Shown here piece after piece: positions 2,348-51,272 of a stretch of DNA of 64,000 nt. The position numbers and the translations under genes are program-made. The number at the start of each line of letters is the position of its first letter. Position 1 is the stretch's first letter. Under the pieces are notes generated by a model. That model saw nothing but the letters and a program-made list of their open reading frames with translations. It was not told the DNA's origin and ran no database searches. This DNA is from an uncultured Candidatus Jidaibacter sp. GTDB lineage: Bacteria; Pseudomonadota; Alphaproteobacteria; Rickettsiales; Midichloriaceae. The stretch covers positions 14,083 to 78,082 of the forward strand of contig CAYWJW010000001.1 in assembly GCA_964458795.1 (NCBI GenBank). Direction: 5' to 3'.

Positions 2348-3199
2348 TTAGAACAGGTATCCTAAGCGCATTTTAAAGGCACCAAGCTTTGGTTTAAGGC
2401 TATATACAATTCCATTTTGAGAAGTGCCGCTAATACTTTTATAAGTAGTAATGGTCCACTCACCGCCAAACATCACATTATCACTCACCATGGTTTCAAA
2501 GCCAATACCAAGCAGATTTCCTCTCGTTCGCTTTGAACTGCCTAAAATTAAATTCCCACTGGGATTTATACTATCTGTAACTGAGCCTTTAAGTTTAGTT
2601 TCTTCAATTCCTAGTTTAATACTAACCAACCAGTAATTCATAATAAGCCCAGCACGTATGGCTGCGCTGTAGCTGCTAGATCCTTTAAAAGCTACTGTTA
2701 TTGGGGGGTCAGTAAAGGAACCTTTAATTCCATCGCGTCCCCCGTCTAGTTCAAATCCTACTACTCCTATGTCACTAAATTGCTTTTGATATCCGGCATG
2801 TAAGCCATAAATTACGCCTCTAGCACCCAGATGGCCTCCCGAGCTTGGCATAAAGCTGTTTGTTATACCAGTTTTGACATCGCCTATGCTATAACCGCCA
2901 TTTATTCCGACATATAATCCCTCCATATGCGGCTCTTCATAGTCATTCGCTGTAGCAACTACAGGTTTTACAGATGTGGATATTTGTGGTGGGTTACTAG
3001 GATGCGGTTCGCACATCATGTATGTTTTTGGAGGACATGAATTGCATATAGTACTTTGGGGATGTGCACACATCATATAAGATGTATATGAGTCTCTAGG
3101 AGGGCGCGGGTTGGTGGACCCACATAAATCGCAAGCATAAGCTACACTGTTAAGTAAGCTCCAGAGTATGATAATGTATAAAAGATTAGATATTCTCAT
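2348..3199 (-). CDS. Paralog of the 1075-2220 surface protein with a single degenerate Cys repeat
   Basis: It shares the same signal peptide and leader (CDLCGSTNPRPPRDSYTSYMMCAHP) and the same C-terminal domain ending RLGYLF. Only one CNSCPPKTYMMC unit is present. Confidence 0.6.
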   Translation of the reverse strand: MRISNLLYIIILWSLLNSVAYACDLCGSTNPRPPRDSYTSYMMCAHPQSTICNSCPPKTYMMCEPHPSNPPQISTSVKPVVATANDYEEPHMEGLYVGINGGYSIGDVKTGITNSFMPSSGGHLGARGVIYGLHAGYQKQFSDIGVVGFELDGGRDGIKGSFTDPPITVAFKGSSSYSAAIRAGLIMNYWLVSIKLGIEETKLKGSVTDSINPSGNLILGSSKRTRGNLLGIGFETMVSDNVMFGGEWTITTYKSISGTSQNGIVYSLKPKLGAFKMRLGYLF

Positions 3200-5874: not shown

Positions 5875-6717
5875 ATGCATGCTAGAAAAAATATTTGTGT
5901 GTTTGATATAGAGACCGTGATTGATGTTGAGATGGCTAGAAGTTTTTTAGCTCTGCCAAAAGAGCTCGCAGATACCGAAGTAATGATAAAGCTAGAAGAG
6001 TACCACTTAGGTATTACAGATGGTAAAAATTCCTTTGCGCGCCAGTTGTTTCATAAAGTTGTAGCCATAGCCTTCCTGCAGGCTGAAATTAATTATGATG
6101 GTGGTTATGAGAGTTATAAGTTTGTTGATCTACGAGCTGGGGGCAAAGAAAGTTTTTCTGAAGCTGAGCTGATCAAGAGTTTCTTTAGCCATTTAGGTAA
6201 TTTGAAGCCAAGACTTATAACGTTTAATGGCCGAACTTTTGACCTGCCTGTATTAAAATATCGCGCTATGCGCCATGGTATAAGTGTACGTTGGTTATAT
6301 AGAGATGGAGACAAATGGAATAATTATCAATCTCGCTATAGCAGTGATTGGCATTGCGATTTGTTAGATGTGCTCTCAGATTATGGTGCATCAGCGCGCA
6401 TAAGGCTTGATGAGGTGTGTGCACTACTGGGAATCCCCGGCAAAATTGATGTAAATGGCGCTATGGTATCAGAGCTTTACAGTTGCGGAAAAATCGAAGA
6501 AATACGCGATTACTGTGAGCTAGACGTTGCCAATACTTATTTAGTATACTTGGGCTATATGCGGCATGTTGGTGATCTTACTGCGAGAGGTTATGAGGAG
6601 GCCGTGCAAGACTTGCATGAGTTTTTAAACTCAAATTCTGATATAAAAAAACATTATGCAAACTTTCTAGATATTTGGGATACCAAGCTTGCAGCTTATA
6701 CCAATTCCAGTAAATAA
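5875..6717 (+). CDS. Predicted 3'-5' exonuclease related to the PolB exonuclease domain (RNase H-like fold)
   Basis: Exo motifs are present: VFDIET (DxE), NGRTFDLPVL and YCELDVANTYLVY (Y..D). The last six codons plus stop (YTNSSK*) lie inside a repeat element. Confidence 0.65.
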   Translation: MHARKNICVFDIETVIDVEMARSFLALPKELADTEVMIKLEEYHLGITDGKNSFARQLFHKVVAIAFLQAEINYDGGYESYKFVDLRAGGKESFSEAELIKSFFSHLGNLKPRLITFNGRTFDLPVLKYRAMRHGISVRWLYRDGDKWNNYQSRYSSDWHCDLLDVLSDYGASARIRLDEVCALLGIPGKIDVNGAMVSELYSCGKIEEIRDYCELDVANTYLVYLGYMRHVGDLTARGYEEAVQDLHEFLNSNSDIKKHYANFLDIWDTKLAAYTNSSK

Positions 6718-6733
6718 CTGTACATATGCGGGA
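6698..6733 (+). mobile_element. MITE-like repeat, half copy (ATACCAATTCCAGTAAATAACTGTACA-TATGCGGG)
   Basis: The same ~30-nt terminus recurs at 11065, 26500, 35919/35993, 45537/45600 and 51098. Confidence 0.75.
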
Positions 6734-6734
6734 T

Positions 6735-6808
6735 AAATTTTTTTTGTCAGGGACTTCCATGCCCCTATTTGGAAGTGTATACTAATAAATATAAGATAGA
6801 ATAAATGT
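6735..6808 (+). promoter_or_regulatory. Promoter-like interspersed module, copy a (GGGACTTCCAT-17 nt-TATACT...ATAAATATAAGAT)
   Basis: TTCCAT at 6755-6760 is followed by a 17-nt non-conserved spacer and TATACT at 6778-6783. The eno start at 6817 is preceded by AGGA. This is one of 7 copies with the same block spacing. Confidence 0.5.
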
Positions 6809-6816
6809 AGGAATAT

Positions 6817-8061
6817 ATGAACAGAACACCAAGAATTAGCAGTTTACACTCTCGAACAATACTGGATAGCAGAGGTAACCCAACTGTAGAAGTTGATATA
6901 ACTTTAGAGGATGGATCTTTTGCCAGAGCTTCTGTACCAAGTGGTGCATCGGTGGGAAGTAAAGAAGCACTCGAGCTTCGTGATGAAGATAGCAAATTTC
7001 ATGGTAAAGGTGTTGAGAAGGCAGTTAACAATGTAAATAATGCTATTGCCGGCAAGCTATTAAACAGAAGCTTTGCTCTACAAGCAGAGCTAGATAATTT
7101 GCTTATAGAACTTGATGGCACTGAAAATAAAAGCAACTTAGGTGCCAATGCTATTTTGGGTGTCTCTATAGCTTTTGCCAAAGCATCAGCACTAAGTTTA
7201 GGGCAACCGCTTTATAGCTATCTTGGTTCCGGGCGAAAACTACCTGTGCCATTTTTTAATGTTATAAATGGTGGAGCGCATGCGGATAATGCTCTTGATA
7301 TACAGGAGTTTATGATAGTGCCTTTTGGATTATCTAATTTTGCGGAGATGGTAAGAGCTGGCAGTGAAATTTTTCATACGCTTAAAAAACTGCTCAGGCA
7401 AAAAAAGTTGAGCACCAATGTTGGAGACGAAGGAGGCTTTGCGCCGAACTTAAGTAGCGCAAAAAACACCCTAGATGTTATTTGTGAGGCTATATCAGAG
7501 GCTGGATATATGCCTGGCACGCAAGTCGCAATTGCGCTTGATGTTGCAGCAAGTGAGTTCTTCGAAGGTGGTAAATATAACTTAAGCGGAGAAGGATTGA
7601 TTATGGATTCACATGGTTTAAGCCATTACTTACAAGAGCTATGTGCACATTATCCAATAATCTCAATAGAGGACCCAATGCATGAGAGCGATTATGAAGG
7701 ATGGAAATTGGTTACTAAGCTCATGGGGAAAGATATACAGATTATCGGCGATGATGTTTTTGTGACCAACCCTAAACTAATAGAGTTTGGTATTGAACAA
7801 GGTTTTGCTAATTCTGTGCTCATCAAGCCAAACCAGATTGGAACTATTACCGAAACAATCCAGGCAATCAACATCGCTAAAATGGGAGGTTATAAAACCA
7901 TGATCTCACATCGTTCTGGCGAAACTGAAGATACCACTATCGCACATCTAGCAGTAGCCCTAGAAAGCGGACAAATAAAATCCGGCTCCCTTTCCAGAAC
8001 CGATCGTTTGTGTAAATATAACGAGCTTTTGAGGATAGAGGAATCTCTTAATAAACAATAA
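6817..8061 (+). CDS. eno: Enolase (phosphopyruvate hydratase)
   Basis: [57 protein letters not shown] and [12 protein letters not shown]. Confidence 0.95.
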
Positions 8062-8130
8062 GATCCCCCTTGCGGTCATAATGAACAATGATATATTTGC
8101 TGCAGAAATGTTAAGATTTATAGGTAAAAT

Positions 8131-8190
8131 ATGTCAGAACAAAATAAATTCAAAGGCGGCGATAAGTTTAAATACATGCAATATCACTGA
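8131..8190 (+). pseudogene. In-frame deletion remnant (19 codons) of the 330-aa gene found intact at 9230-10222
   Basis: MSEQNKFKGGDKFKYMQYH* joins the N-terminus (MSGQDKFKGGDKFK) and the C-terminus (YMQYH*) of the downstream copy. The flanking leader 8042-8130 duplicates 9142-9229. Confidence 0.8.
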
Positions 8191-8198
8191 GGTATTCT

Positions 8199-40726: not shown

Positions 40727-40803
40727 GAAAATTTTAACAGCAGGGACTTCCATGCTCCTATTTTGATGTGATATATTAATAAATATAGGGTAAGAGAAGT
40801 ATG
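40727..40803 (+). promoter_or_regulatory. Promoter-like interspersed module, copy f
   Basis: CAGGGACTTCCAT is followed by an 18-nt spacer and TATATT (40772-40777), then ATAAATATAGGGTAAGAGAAGTATG. It lies about 75 nt upstream of ntrX. Confidence 0.45.
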
Positions 40804-40876
40804 CCAAGTATAATGCTTGATTGAAATATTTTGATTATTGATTATAGTAATAGGGATGTATGGTAGTAGTTAGTAA

Positions 40877-43310: not shown

Positions 43311-45473
43311 TTATAGAGATAAAGCGTCCATGGCGCGCTTTGGAGCATTTTCTACTTGAGCCATCCAGCTAATACTCCTATATTTAGCAAGAGGGGTTAG
43401 CTCTGGACTGATCTCTTGTTTTTTTTCTGTGCCTTCTGAGATAGCAATAAGTCTCTCTGTCAGTACCTCAAGAAATTTCTCAACTTGGTCGTCACCTGGC
43501 TCAACCTTGTATTTCTCTATTTCGGTGGTCAAAGCCTCTTCCAAGGATTCTGTGCTCTTCAGATCTATGTTAAGTCTCATGTCTCTCATTGCAGCTTGGA
43601 TCTCACCGGTTGGATCATCTTTGAGTATCTCCAAACAGTTTTTAACTCGCGCTTCCATAGGGCCACGGGTTATATCGCAGACCTTATTATAAAGATTTGT
43701 GCCATCTCCCAAATCTCTAAAAGGTAATCCACTCTGAACGTGATCTATAATAACAAATGCTCTATCTTCAGAATGATCTTTTATCAACTTTATAGCTTTG
43801 GGGATCACGGAGGAATCTAATCCTGTAAACGGCTCATCAAGAACTATAAGCTTTTTTCCCCGCATTAGTGCTGATACCAATAAAATAGCCTTTTTCTGCC
43901 CACCACTTAACTTAGAGCTTGGAGGGCTATCTAAAGGGCTATCAGATTCATATATTTTTGACATCCCTAATTCATCTAAGTATTTTATGACTCGTTCCTT
44001 TTCGTCACCATTCACTTCCTTCTTACCCATTATATCTTCAAGCAATGTGAAGTTTGGCGCGGGGGAATAGTCTTGCATAGACTTATAGAATGAATCAGAT
44101 CTAGTTACCTTTCCTTCTTCAATAAAGGCAGCAAATGCTATAGCGCTAGTCAGTGAACTTTTACCTGAGCCAGACTTGCCTTTAAGCAGCATGATGTCCC
44201 TAGCTTTGAGTTCCAATTCAGTTGTCAATGTAAAGCCACTTTGTGTGCTAATCTTAAGTTTAGTATTCTTCTCTAGCTTCAAAAGAATATCACTTACAGC
44301 TTCACCTTCATTTGTTATTTTCATCATATGATGTTCTTCAGCCTTCTTTTGCTTTTCCTCAGCTTGCTCAAGCAAGACCATTAATTTATTTATCTTTTCA
44401 ATACTTTTATGTAACTCAGCATATTTTTGCACAGCATCAGACATACTGGTAATTACTTTCCTCATCCTAGCAAATTCCTTAAATACAGGATAGTAATCCA
44501 TCTTATATTCAAGTTCAGGATTCGCCAAAATTCCTTTACCCATAAAACGCGGCAAAAACCATTCCTCGAGAATTTTGAAAATTGGAGTAATAGTTTTATT
44601 CAAACCCGATAATATGTGGGAGATATTATTATGTGCACCTCTATATGACTCCTGCATACTGGCTATCAAGCGAGCACTAGTGCCGCTAGATATTATGCTA
44701 GGTGCATTTTTGCTGGCATAATCCACCAATGTTTTGAATTTATTATCACTTTCCTTTGTGCTTTCTTTAACATATAAAGCGATCCTCTTTACCAGATATG
44801 TTACTGTAAGTCTAGCTACGCTTAGGGCTAAAAGTGAAACAAGGATTTTATTCGGTGTGTTAAGCGGAGTAATCAAATGCGGGGCAATTGATTTGCTGGC
44901 AGCTAGGACAGTATTACATTGTGCATAAAATTTTGTGGCATTAATTGCTAGGCCTATTGTGATATCGAGCAAGTTATTTATGATTAATTTGCTGTGGCGA
45001 GACAAGCAATCTTGCAGGAGATAAGCTTCACTTTCTTTGCCATGCATAACCACATCCTGCAGGAAGAAATTAACTTCCATATCTTTTGCTTCAAGCACTT
45101 CTTTTCTAATTTTTTCAGCCATAGGAGCAGCAAGTTCATCAGCTATGATGTTATTCATGGCTTTGCTAGTCTCATCTAAAGCTACATTCAGCACCGAGTA
45201 TGTCGCCAATTTATCGAGTGCTTCATCATAACCCTTAGCTTTCCTACCCCTTAAAGCTTTTTTGTCGTAGCCCTTTAGTCCTGTAACATCATAGGTATAG
45301 TTTTCAACAAACTCTGGAAGATAATGATGCTTAAGTGCCGTTAAAGCCCAAGCCTTTAAACCCGAAAAACTAATTGGATTGAGCGATGAAGTAACTAGAG
45401 CGGCAGTTCTCGCATTCATGCCAAACCCAAGTTGTAGCGCTTTATTTGCAGATCTTTCTATTAATTCAAACAT
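43311..45473 (-). CDS. Atypical ABC-type ATPase protein (about 430-aa non-canonical N-terminal region + transporter-type NBD + C-terminal extension)
   Basis: Walker A GKSGSGKSS, signature LSGGQKK, Walker B LIVLDEP and H-loop IIDH. The N-terminal region is only weakly hydrophobic. It is a paralog of 54535-56448. Confidence 0.65.
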   Translation of the reverse strand: MFELIERSANKALQLGFGMNARTAALVTSSLNPISFSGLKAWALTALKHHYLPEFVENYTYDVTGLKGYDKKALRGRKAKGYDEALDKLATYSVLNVALDETSKAMNNIIADELAAPMAEKIRKEVLEAKDMEVNFFLQDVVMHGKESEAYLLQDCLSRHSKLIINNLLDITIGLAINATKFYAQCNTVLAASKSIAPHLITPLNTPNKILVSLLALSVARLTVTYLVKRIALYVKESTKESDNKFKTLVDYASKNAPSIISSGTSARLIASMQESYRGAHNNISHILSGLNKTITPIFKILEEWFLPRFMGKGILANPELEYKMDYYPVFKEFARMRKVITSMSDAVQKYAELHKSIEKINKLMVLLEQAEEKQKKAEEHHMMKITNEGEAVSDILLKLEKNTKLKISTQSGFTLTTELELKARDIMLLKGKSGSGKSSLTSAIAFAAFIEEGKVTRSDSFYKSMQDYSPAPNFTLLEDIMGKKEVNGDEKERVIKYLDELGMSKIYESDSPLDSPPSSKLSGGQKKAILLVSALMRGKKLIVLDEPFTGLDSSVIPKAIKLIKDHSEDRAFVIIDHVQSGLPFRDLGDGTNLYNKVCDITRGPMEARVKNCLEILKDDPTGEIQAAMRDMRLNIDLKSTESLEEALTTEIEKYKVEPGDDQVEKFLEVLTERLIAISEGTEKKQEISPELTPLAKYRSISWMAQVENAPKRAMDALSL

Positions 45474-45536
45474 AGTAAGCCCACTAAAAATTGCTTCTAG
45501 TAGTATTTATGCCACACAAAGGTTAACAACTGGTTA

Positions 45537-45814
45537 ATACCAATTCCAGTAAATAACTGTACAGATGCGCTTCTGTACAGTTATTTACTGGAATTGGTAT
45601 AAGGTAGTGAAAAGAAGTATATTGGACCATGCTATCACAGGACAATATAACTTAAGAAACCTGCCACACAACCTGTCTTTGCCCGACTTGATCAGGCAAT
45701 CCATTTTAAGGCTATAGAAATGCTTGCTTGATATACTAAATATAAGGCATTACCTGGCCTTAAGATGGATCACCCGATCAAGTCTGGTGATGACATTGGT
45801 TGATTGGTATAAGC
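45537..45814 (-). repeat. Composite ~300-bp repeat, copy B (inverted relative to copy A)
   Basis: The reverse complement aligns with 35698-35995. It contains an almost perfect palindromic MITE copy at 45537-45600 and two hairpin units. Confidence 0.85.
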
Positions 45815-45970
45815 AGTATATCTTATTATTTTTTTTACCTGTTTTAACAGGTGGAAGGCGCATATTTCTTAGGTTTTGTTTTTAAATAACAAGTGGAAAC
45901 AGTGGTTTTCCTGACTTTGAAGCTTTTTATCCTGAAATACGTTCATAATGACTTTTTCTTTAGGATTTAA

Positions 45971-46046
45971 CCACAATTCTCTTATCTTGTATTTATGAGT
46001 ATACTTGACTTGTTATAGGTAATGGAAGTCCCTGTGTGAAATATTT
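45971..46046 (-). promoter_or_regulatory. Promoter-like interspersed module, copy g (minus orientation)
   Basis: The reverse complement reads CACAGGGACTTCCAT, an 18-nt spacer, TATACT, then ATAAATACAAGATAAGAGAATTGTGG. It starts right after the miaA stop and faces the ABC-like gene at 45473. Confidence 0.4.
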
Positions 46047-46937
46047 TTATATTTTTTTATGGGTCTTGGTATTAGCTATAATCTCATTGAAATCAAATTG
46101 ATGCCGTCCCCAGGTAATCTGGCGTTTAGCATAGTGACGGGTTGATTGTTGTGCCTTGCAAATTGTTTCATCTAAGGTCAACTTTCCTTCCAGATAACTC
46201 TGAATTTCTGGGATGCCGCAGGCCTTTGGAAGCGGTGCATCTCCAAAAATGGTAATTAGCTGTTTAACCTCCTTAACTGCACCAAGCTCTATCATTTTGA
46301 TGAAACGTTGGTTAATTTTCTGGTAAATTACCTCGCGAGTTGGGTTTAGCCAAATTATATAATAATCAGATCGCGGAAATGGTGCATGCTTTTCATGTTT
46401 TTGCAGTTCTGCTAGGGAATGACCGCTCTCAAACATCACTTCAAGTGCGCGCATTATGCGTTGCATATCATTAGGCTTAAGCTTTGAGGCAGTCATTGGA
46501 TCTAGCTTGCGTAAGTATTCGTGTAGTTCAGGTGTGTCCAAACGCTCTCTCAGTTCTGCCACCTTGGCCTTTGTTTCGCTAGAGATAGTAGGTAAATCTG
46601 GCAAGCCCTCTACTAGTGCTTTTATATACAGTCCAGTGCCGCCAACTAATATTGGCATTTTGCCTCGAGCACTCACTTCATTAATTTTGCGGGTTGCATC
46701 TATTATAAAATCTCCAACTGAATAAGCATCGAGTACGGATCTAAAGCCATATAAGTGGTGTGGGATATCTTGCCTTTCTTCTGCGGTTGGCTGCGCTCCT
46801 ATAACAGGTATTTCACGGTATACCTGCATAGAATCAGCATTTATTATTTCACCGTCAAATCGCTTGGCAAGCTCTACTCCATAGGCGGTTTTGCCTGAGG
46901 CAGTGGCACCGAAAATGATGTTTATTTTAGCGCGCAT
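46047..46937 (-). CDS. miaA: tRNA dimethylallyltransferase
   Basis: [14 protein letters not shown]-loop, ADSMQVY and [12 protein letters not shown] prefer the start at MRAK (46937, an 11-nt overlap with ruvB) over the ORF-track start at 46982. Confidence 0.88.
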
Positions 46938-51077: not shown

Positions 51078-51098
51078 GTTATTTACCGGAATTGGTAT
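51078..51098 (-). mobile_element. MITE-like repeat, solitary terminus
   Basis: GTTATTTACCGGAATTGGTAT. Confidence 0.55.
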
Positions 51099-51272
51099 CA
51101 GTATTATAGTTAAAAGTGTGAAGTGGATGTGAAGATCTATTACCAGCCGCAGCCGGTTGTAGTTGTAAGGAGAGTAACTATGTAGCCTGCAATTGACATG
51201 GTGCCAACATTATTAGTACACACTTATTATAACTTATTATAGTATAGCCTGCAAGGCATAACACCAAAATAT

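Follow-up and report, generated by a model that had tools for sequence, protein, structure and literature searches.

What is an approximately 80-nt non-coding sequence doing in seven places within 64 kb of a bacterial genome, each time with two conserved blocks held at the distance that separates the elements of a promoter? The stretch that raises this question is a 64,000-nt piece of contig CAYWJW010000001.1 from an uncultured Candidatus Jidaibacter sp. (assembly GCA_964458795.1, positions 14,083 to 78,082; hereafter the window), and we refer to the repeated sequence as the module. Its promoter layout, its presence in seven copies and the location of these copies, mostly where genes were inserted or rearranged, suggest that it is a reused ("mobile") promoter cassette with a non-canonical block in the −35 region. 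We estimate the probability of this reading at roughly 60%.

The copies form a genuine repeat family. A search of the window with the 12-mer core AGGGACTTCCAT, allowing at most one mismatch, returned seven matches, compared with 0.15 expected from shuffled sequences, none of which reached seven. A profile of the module was built from ten copies, its shared extent of about 80 nt being taken from the aligned flanks of the core, and nhmmer placed it at exactly seven positions in the window (E values of 1e-13 to 1e-19), with no further match there below E=2. Both searches confirm the seven copies of about 75 bp described in an initial annotation of this DNA. In the window the core occurs only within a full module, which argues that the copies descend from one sequence and are not binding sites that evolved independently. 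The order of parts is constant: an A/T tract (AAAAATATTTT; consensus AAAAATATTTTGCAT), the core, a spacer, a TATAnT box and then AATAAATATAAGATRAGARAAGTGTG, the conserved block after TATAnT being 26 nt long. The invariant block of the core region, GGACTTCCAT, is a near-palindrome (GGnAnTnCC).

Spacing and sequence are conserved very differently along the module. The spacer between the core and TATAnT measures 18 nt in four of the seven window copies and 17 nt in the other three, and no other length occurs among the 12 copies known from the window, from a sister species (17 nt in both of its copies) and from three metagenome contigs (L001-L003). All ten full copies have TATAnT, with position 5 alone variable, and the sister copies read TATAGT and TATTAT; the fifth base is the least constrained position of a −10 element. 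A TGn motif immediately precedes this box in three window copies and in L002, a TG adjoins it in copy 1, and half of the full copies (5/10) extend the similarity by about 15 nt past GTGTG (..AAATCCTAAGGAAA). Among nine copies, mean pairwise identity is 0.96 in the core, 0.88 in the −10 box, 0.79 in the downstream block, 0.63 in the A/T tract and 0.38 in the spacer, and permutation of the alignment columns gives p = 5e-5 for a contiguous run as poorly conserved as the spacer. The spacer had been described as free of sequence constraint. This holds for most pairs of copies, whose spacers are near random (0.33 identity vs 0.26 expected), but not for a subfamily of four copies (cores at 6749, 18604, 34782 and 40742), in which spacer identity reaches 0.61.

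The same pattern is seen between species. We compared the window with syntenic contigs (L084, L087 and L092) of a sister species from JGI sample 3300038443, whose enolase, NtrX and MreC are 79%, 84% and 73% identical to those of the window. Upstream of ntrX the sister carries TTTTTTTTAAGGGGCTTCCAT-N17-TATAGT-GATAAATATAAGAC (L087 9056-9144; nhmmer E=4e-8), and the site is orthologous since the flanking intergenic sequence aligns as well. There the sister retains the core, the −10 box and the 13 nt beyond it; the spacer is unrelated and its length is off by one base. Upstream of eno (L084 9924-9990) lies a more diverged module, AAAAAATATTTTTTCATGTACTTCCAT-N17-TATTAT, which retains AAAAAATATTTT..ACTTCCAT-N17-TATTAT and in which the block after the −10 box has largely diverged. 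Common to both sister modules are the A/T tract, the CTTCCAT block, a TATnnT box and a spacer of 17 nt, whose sequence has been replaced in both. Because the blocks and the spacer length are retained while the spacer sequence is replaced, the comparison points to purifying selection on a two-site DNA element of fixed spacing; the two blocks at a fixed distance of 17 or 18 nt, noted from the window alone, thus appear to be under selection. As the sister has modules at eno and ntrX and none at the other comparable sites, these two copies predate the split of the two species and have been selectively maintained, and the other five are newer.

The sister has none of these five copies at the four sites open to comparison. 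The sister's mreC and AEC-family transporter genes overlap (L092 10848-10861), whereas in the window they stand 3.6 kb apart (26312-29913), separated by an insert that has module 3 at its left edge, then a remnant of an insertion sequence (IS), a palindromic repeat and a symporter-histidine-kinase gene, and module 4 with an 88-nt leader at its right edge. Similarly, the gap between parE and the gene for the E2 subunit of pyruvate dehydrogenase (PDH) is 134 nt in the sister vs 1.4 kb in the window, where it holds module 5, a lineage-specific gene and two repeats, a segment of about 1.3 kb that the sister lacks. The segment from miaA to a helix-turn-helix gene, which includes module 7, differs in content between the two species, and at the site of copy 2 the sister has unrelated genes and no counterpart of gene 18791. 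No module occurs in 17 kb of conserved synteny with the sister (46.9-64 kb, including rplM-rpsI and atpDC). The newer copies, by this comparison, mark rearrangement or insertion junctions. Dissemination as a repeat, put forward as a speculation in the initial annotation, fits the absence of five copies from the sister, with copy 2 lying where the gene content itself differs. The module may plausibly spread by recombination between its copies or by being mobilised together with neighbouring DNA.

We infer promoter activity from this architecture and propose the following mechanism. RNA polymerase with a sigma-70-family factor would read TATAnT as the −10 box, the AAAAATATTTT tract at about −57 to −46 would serve the alpha subunits as an UP element, and the invariant GGACTTCCAT at about −40 to −30 would stand in for the canonical −35 hexamer; its reader would be sigma region 4 or an activator that occupies the −35 region. 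The UP-element consensus of E. coli is reportedly AAAWWTWTTTT, and AAAAATATTTT matches it by eye at the expected distance. Transcription would start about 7 nt past TATAnT, within the conserved AATAAATATAAG, so that module-driven mRNAs would share a purine-rich 5' leader of about 20 nt (AUAAGAUAAGAAAAGUGUG). At eno, the ATG (6817) lies 33 nt past the end of TATACT, which leaves no room for another promoter, and the 3' end of the module overlaps the ribosome-binding site; the 27 nt first annotated for this interval is about the leader length to be expected. The newer copies could supply transcription to genes severed from their former operon, such as the AEC transporter gene, and to newly acquired genes (18791 and 34982). 

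The placement of the copies is broadly compatible with such a role. All are intergenic and none lies wholly inside a gene, although the edges of copies 2 and 7 overlap gene ends. Relative to the genes that they precede, the modules span −82 to −4 (eno), −150 to −68 (ntrX) and −172 to −89 (AEC transporter gene), copies 2 and 5 are found roughly 200 to 120 nt upstream, and for copies 3 and 7 the distance is greater or there is no gene; the copies on L001 and L003 are likewise upstream of genes. Copy 2 overlaps the last codons of a BioY-family open reading frame (ORF; 18051-18605) and sits 121 nt ahead of 18791, a lineage-specific gene without Pfam match. Copy 4 is 88 nt upstream of the AEC-family transporter gene (29914), after which comes a YopJ-like gene, and copy 5 precedes a lineage-specific hypothetical gene with a probable ATG at 34982. 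In place of the A/T tract, copy 1 has the inner portion of a half palindromic repeat (6695-6745). Coordinates are collected in Table 1.

Table 1. Module copies and two adjacent features in the window
Feature	Position	Strand	Core	Spacer	−10 box	Remarks
Module copy 1	6735-6813	+	6749-6760	17 nt	TATACT, 6778-6783	upstream of eno
Module copy 2	18589-18670	+	18604-18615	18 nt with TGn	TATATT, 18634-18639	
Module copy 3	26316-26401	+	26331-26342	17 nt	TATACT, 26360-26365	
Module copy 4	29742-29825	+	29756-29767	17 nt	TATAGT, 29785-29790	
Module copy 5	34767-34850	+	34782-34793	18 nt with TGn	TATATT, 34812-34817	
Module copy 6	40728-40809	+	40742-40753	18 nt with TGn	TATATT, 40772-40777	upstream of ntrX (ATG 40877)
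Module copy 7	45963-46047	−	46022-46033	18 nt	TATACT, 45998-46003	
Canonical sigma-70-like site	40821-40848	+		16 nt	TATAGT	TTGAAA-16-TATAGT, between module 6 and ntrX
IS deletion derivative (~63 nt)	26421-26483	+				29 nt past module 3; both terminal inverted repeats kept; rve-type IS, intact in L002

Several observations weigh against the promoter reading. The hexamer at the −35 position, TTCCAT, matches TTGACA in two of six bases, and a scan of four module regions with the sigma-70 consensus never reported the module. Canonical sites of the form TTGNNN-17-TAnnnT occur upstream of tRNA-Met (TTGCAA-17-TATTTT) and RNase P RNA (TTGAAG-17-TAGACT). With such a −35 position, GGACTTCCAT would need another reader, be it an activator over the −35 region or an unusual contact by sigma region 4. 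A plain promoter does not account for the conservation, within the genome, of the 26 nt that follow the −10 box, and this block may be an operator or a shared leader. At ntrX, the module is indeed upstream of the gene, as first annotated, but it is not obviously the ntrX promoter, because a canonical site lies downstream of it (Table 1) and is kept in the sister as TTGAAA-16-TATACT (L087 about 9143-9170); the module would be dispensable there, or act as a second promoter or regulatory site. Copy 3, which starts 4 nt past the mreC stop codon, faces no gene: the gene-free region noted there at the outset contains the IS remnant and a long palindromic repeat (26500-26658). Copy 7 begins on the stop codon of miaA; past it lie, in this order, a 25-codon ORF, a composite repeat of 305 nt and a 720-aa ABC-like gene (43311-45473). 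This gene is the next one on the same strand, as had been claimed, but about 490 nt, with a 64-nt perfect palindrome and another repeat, separate it from the module. Orientation toward downstream genes, which the initial annotation had stressed, is found in four out of four informative tandem cases (copies 1, 2 and 7 and that of L001), but the argument is weak (p ~0.06) because three copies lie in divergent intergenic regions, where a gene is faced in either orientation, and only the four cases are informative. Finally, the DNA examined amounts to 64 kb of one genome and about 130 kb from relatives.

Other ways of reading the hexamers were considered and rejected. Pairings that use TTGCAT as −35 element, or TATAAG or TAAGAT as −10 element, would place the partner element in unconserved sequence. 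By inspection, none of the consensus sequences of sigma-54 (GG-N10-GC), sigma-32, sigma-28, CtrA, LexA or IHF fits the module.

The alternative closest to our proposal refines it: the modules would be a set of regulated promoters or operators in which GGACTTCCAT is bound by a lineage-specific activator or an alternative sigma region 4, and the block after the −10 box offers a second site for a protein or a common RNA handle. The set would comprise eno, ntrX, the transporter with its YopJ-like effector and lineage-specific proteins. We regard this as possible, on a tentative footing. It would account for a core that is the best conserved block and yet contains no sigma-70 −35 hexamer, and that survives at orthologous sites as GGGGCTTCCAT and GTACTTCCAT, for the lack of the module in housekeeping operons such as rplM-rpsI, atpDC, tRNA-Met and RNase P, and for its presence at ntrX besides a canonical promoter. 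However, site-by-site evolution would show the binding site alone, not only within full modules, and no candidate regulator was identified. The misfit of the sigma-54, sigma-32 and sigma-28 sequences counts against it as well, as does that of extracytoplasmic function (ECF) sigma factors. ECF promoters combine a GGAAC-type −35 element with a conserved −10 element (CGT or TCTGA type) 16-17 nt downstream. GGGACTT does resemble GGAACTT, which had led to the idea of an ECF-type module, but the geometry fails, because the −10 partner 16-17 nt downstream would be unconserved spacer and the conserved box, a housekeeping-type TATAnT, is found 21-22 nt downstream of GGGACTT. That a dedicated factor controls a regulon is speculation. 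Somewhat more doubtful still is the bolder version in which GGACTTCCAT is the site of a novel lineage-specific activator or of a divergent sigma specificity and the module builds a regulon by copy and paste; each new copy would then put a gene under one common control, and the shared 5' leader would add a post-transcriptional handle.

The remaining explanations dispense with promoter function. A selfish or relic dispersed repeat, derived from the end or interior of a mobile element or from IS-flanking DNA, with an AT-rich sequence that resembles a promoter by accident, is unlikely in our view. It would agree with the multiple copies and with the sharing of the whole 80 nt, beyond what protein-binding sites need, with the junction of module, 30 nt and IS end common to window copy 3 and L002 despite unrelated upstream flanks, with left edges that coincide with insertion boundaries and with the stop codons of upstream genes, and with a genome full of other small repeats. 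Neutral decay, however, would be even along the element, whereas the spacer is near random and the flanking blocks stand at 0.8-0.96, a contrast that recurs between species, and no copy is wholly inside a gene. Moreover, folding and inspection revealed no hairpin, terminal inverted repeats or inverted termini in the module and no direct repeats at its edges that would indicate target-site duplication, the latter being a weak test because the 3' edge of the module is ill-defined. It is improbable that the module is a recombination or attachment site, homologous or site-specific, at which gene cassettes insert, even though two direct-repeat modules bound the 3.6-kb mreC-AEC insert, modules 5 and 7 lie in lineage-specific segments and the module of L003 contains an IS110-family element, a family known for sequence-specific targets. 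No integrase or recombinase adjoins any window copy, there are no inverted sites around a crossover region as is typical of tyrosine and serine recombinases, and the left boundary of the copy 5 insert is about 65 nt from the module. The spacers of modules 3 and 4 are unrelated, so that these two are no recent duplication, and any dispersed repeat can mediate RecA-dependent rearrangement without such a function. We consider equally improbable an element that acts as RNA, as a shared 5' leader, a small RNA or the start of a leader peptide, with the upstream DNA blocks being incidental. The conserved 26-nt block, whose end always offers GTG, ATG or TTG, and the situation past copy 3, where only about 110 nt and a long hairpin follow as in a small transcription unit, would suit it. 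But the initial view that the module is no structured RNA stands: folding of the alignment yields 2 invariant pairs at −0.6 kcal/mol without covariation or compensatory pairs, and no Rfam match overlaps a module in the window at the gathering threshold or in L001-L003 at E<=1. The short ORFs vary in length (1-38 codons) and sequence, and the sister eno copy loses the downstream block yet keeps the upstream ones. Around copy 3, relaxing the Rfam search to E<=10 gave chance microRNA-like matches to the adjacent palindrome and nothing else. A hammerhead-like sequence after this copy, CTGATGAG, was rejected as the inverted repeat of an IS, and a leader peptide was rejected since the short ORFs are not conserved.

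The bacterium, judging by its genes, is a Midichloriaceae-like (Jidaibacter-related) endosymbiotic member of the Rickettsiales, an intracellular alphaproteobacterium. The window encodes cytochrome bd, a PolB-type exonuclease, BioY, TolB, MreC, mitochondrial-type PDH E2 and E3, NtrX, a 17-kDa-antigen-like protein and a YopJ-like acetyltransferase. Its closest named relative is a metagenome-assembled genome of Candidatus Jidaibacter sp. (L004; ParE 78% identical), and its enolase shares 60% identity with the enzyme of Ca. Jidaibacter acanthamoeba. A strict module pattern had no match among 185,579 species-representative genomes, which do not include the window's species, so the family is not widespread; the plasmid collection gave no match either. 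In metagenomes the pattern was found only on the three short rhizosphere-type contigs L001-L003. Two matches on viral contigs were rejected, being at the estimated chance level and having no other module features. No module was found in L004 or in the more distant relatives L085, L086, L089, L090 and L093, and a closer relative (L091; MreC 90%) has none after mreC, though its contig stops 76 nt beyond the gene.

Mobile elements adjoin modules on two of the metagenome contigs. On L002 an intact rve-type IS (about 60-1190) lies about 30 nt past a module, as does its remnant in the window. On L003 an IS110-family element (79-1290; DEDD_Tnp_IS110 and Transposase_20 domains) interrupts a module exactly between ATAAATAT and AAGATAAG, and the module may be a programmed target for this family. 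Among the genes next to modules, the symporter-histidine kinase fusion of the 3.6-kb insert (26928-29654, minus strand) encodes 908 aa with a sodium/solute symporter domain; L001 has a related stand-alone symporter gene whose stop codon lies inside a module. The eno gene (6817-8061) has been relocated: it directly follows mlaA-mlaC in two outgroups (L085 and L086), where there is no module, and in the window and the sister it lies downstream of cydAB and the PolB-type exonuclease gene, with the module in between. The 25-codon ORF downstream of miaA and just past module 7 (45869-45946, minus strand) has an unconvincing likeness to Hfq; hfq often sits downstream of miaA in other bacteria.

The window holds further repeats. 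A second family consists of a perfect palindrome of about 64 nt, TACCAATTCCAGTAAATAACTGTACAGATGCG/CGCATCTGTACAGTTATTTACTGGAATTGGTA (45537-45600), which sits at gene 3' ends, recurs at 11062-11113, 26500-26658 and 35917-35999, with half copies at 6695-6745 and 51078-51102, includes one long variant with a nested insert and looks REP- or MITE-like (MITE, miniature inverted-repeat transposable element) or terminator-like. Three modules have such a palindrome downstream on the same strand. A 305-nt composite repeat of 90% identity (35691-35995 and, inverted, 45535-45821), made of an imperfectly palindromic element of about 135 nt and the 64-nt palindrome, lies downstream of modules 5 and 7. Two paralogous outer-membrane beta-barrel genes (1075-2220 and 2348-3199) share about 70% DNA identity, and one of them contains five tandem 57-nt repeats (1742-2083). 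A duplicated lineage-specific gene family without Pfam match (8042-9047, 9142-9271 and 10205-11059) has 83% identity over about 860 nt, up to 94% in one 300-nt stretch, and its 130-nt upstream regions are themselves repeated with 90% identity, a separate case of a repeated 5' region. A single ORF (60506-61024, minus strand) joins Phd/YefM antitoxin and ParE toxin domains.

Transcription factors are very few in obligate intracellular Rickettsiales, and to our knowledge promoters of Midichloriaceae-like lineages are almost unknown; a brief literature search on repeats and promoters in Jidaibacter and the Midichloriaceae found nothing relevant. The module family therein offers a compact and easily tested candidate promoter, with a comparative signature of conserved blocks, a scrambled spacer and copies at rearrangement junctions. 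If it acts as we propose, it would be an example of how a symbiont genome rich in repeats rebuilds or creates transcription units once insertions have split operons. Should the −35-region block have a reader of its own, the module would mark out a regulon with ntrX among its members and might become a portable expression tool for genetically intractable organisms.

Among known systems, the module is closest to the putative mobile promoters (PMPs) of Matus-Garcia, Nijveen and van Passel (2012; NAR 40:10032), which the commentary on that work describes as sequences that lie upstream of unrelated genes and are at least 80% identical across 50 nt or more (PMC3575422). Several pairs of window copies, with unrelated downstream genes, exceed this threshold, for example 18589-18665 and 34767-34842 (85.7% over 77 nt), 34782-34847 and 40742-40807 (85.1% over 67 nt), and 6749-6798 and 34782-34831 (84.3% over 51 nt). 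The module family thus fits the operational class of PMPs, with which, as they are presented there, it shares highly similar non-coding DNA upstream of unrelated genes of one genome, a proposed role in rewiring transcription and an unknown way of moving. PMPs are recognized in that account by similarity alone, whereas the module adds block-wise selection, orthologous retention in a sister species and a link to synteny breaks; it also belongs to a lineage outside the survey as described and has a non-canonical −35-region block. Intergenic repeats with AT-rich promoter motifs have been tested in reporter constructs for halovirus HF2 (PMC8707807), but these, according to that source, are archaeal viral promoters of one small genome and have no bearing on the mechanism of the module. 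Like the Correia elements of Neisseria, ERIC and REPIN, the module is short, intergenic and multi-copy, could supply promoters and overlaps gene ends. Those elements, however, have terminal inverted repeats or palindromes, target-site duplications and known transposases, none of which the module shows, and the inverted repeats or palindromic fold by which MITEs (Correia, ERIC, REPIN and the Rickettsia palindromic element) are recognized were not found in it. It is the palindromic family of the window (e.g. 45537-45600), different in sequence from the module, that resembles this kind. With sigma-70 promoters of the E. coli rrnB P1 type, the module shares an UP-like A/T tract, TATAnT, a spacer of 17-18 nt and, in some copies, TGn; unlike them, it has its TTCCAT (2/6) within an 11-nt invariant block of no known reader and conserves 26 nt after the −10 box. 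The kind of element would therefore be one already known, but in a new lineage, with an unusual −35-region block and unusually clear comparative support.

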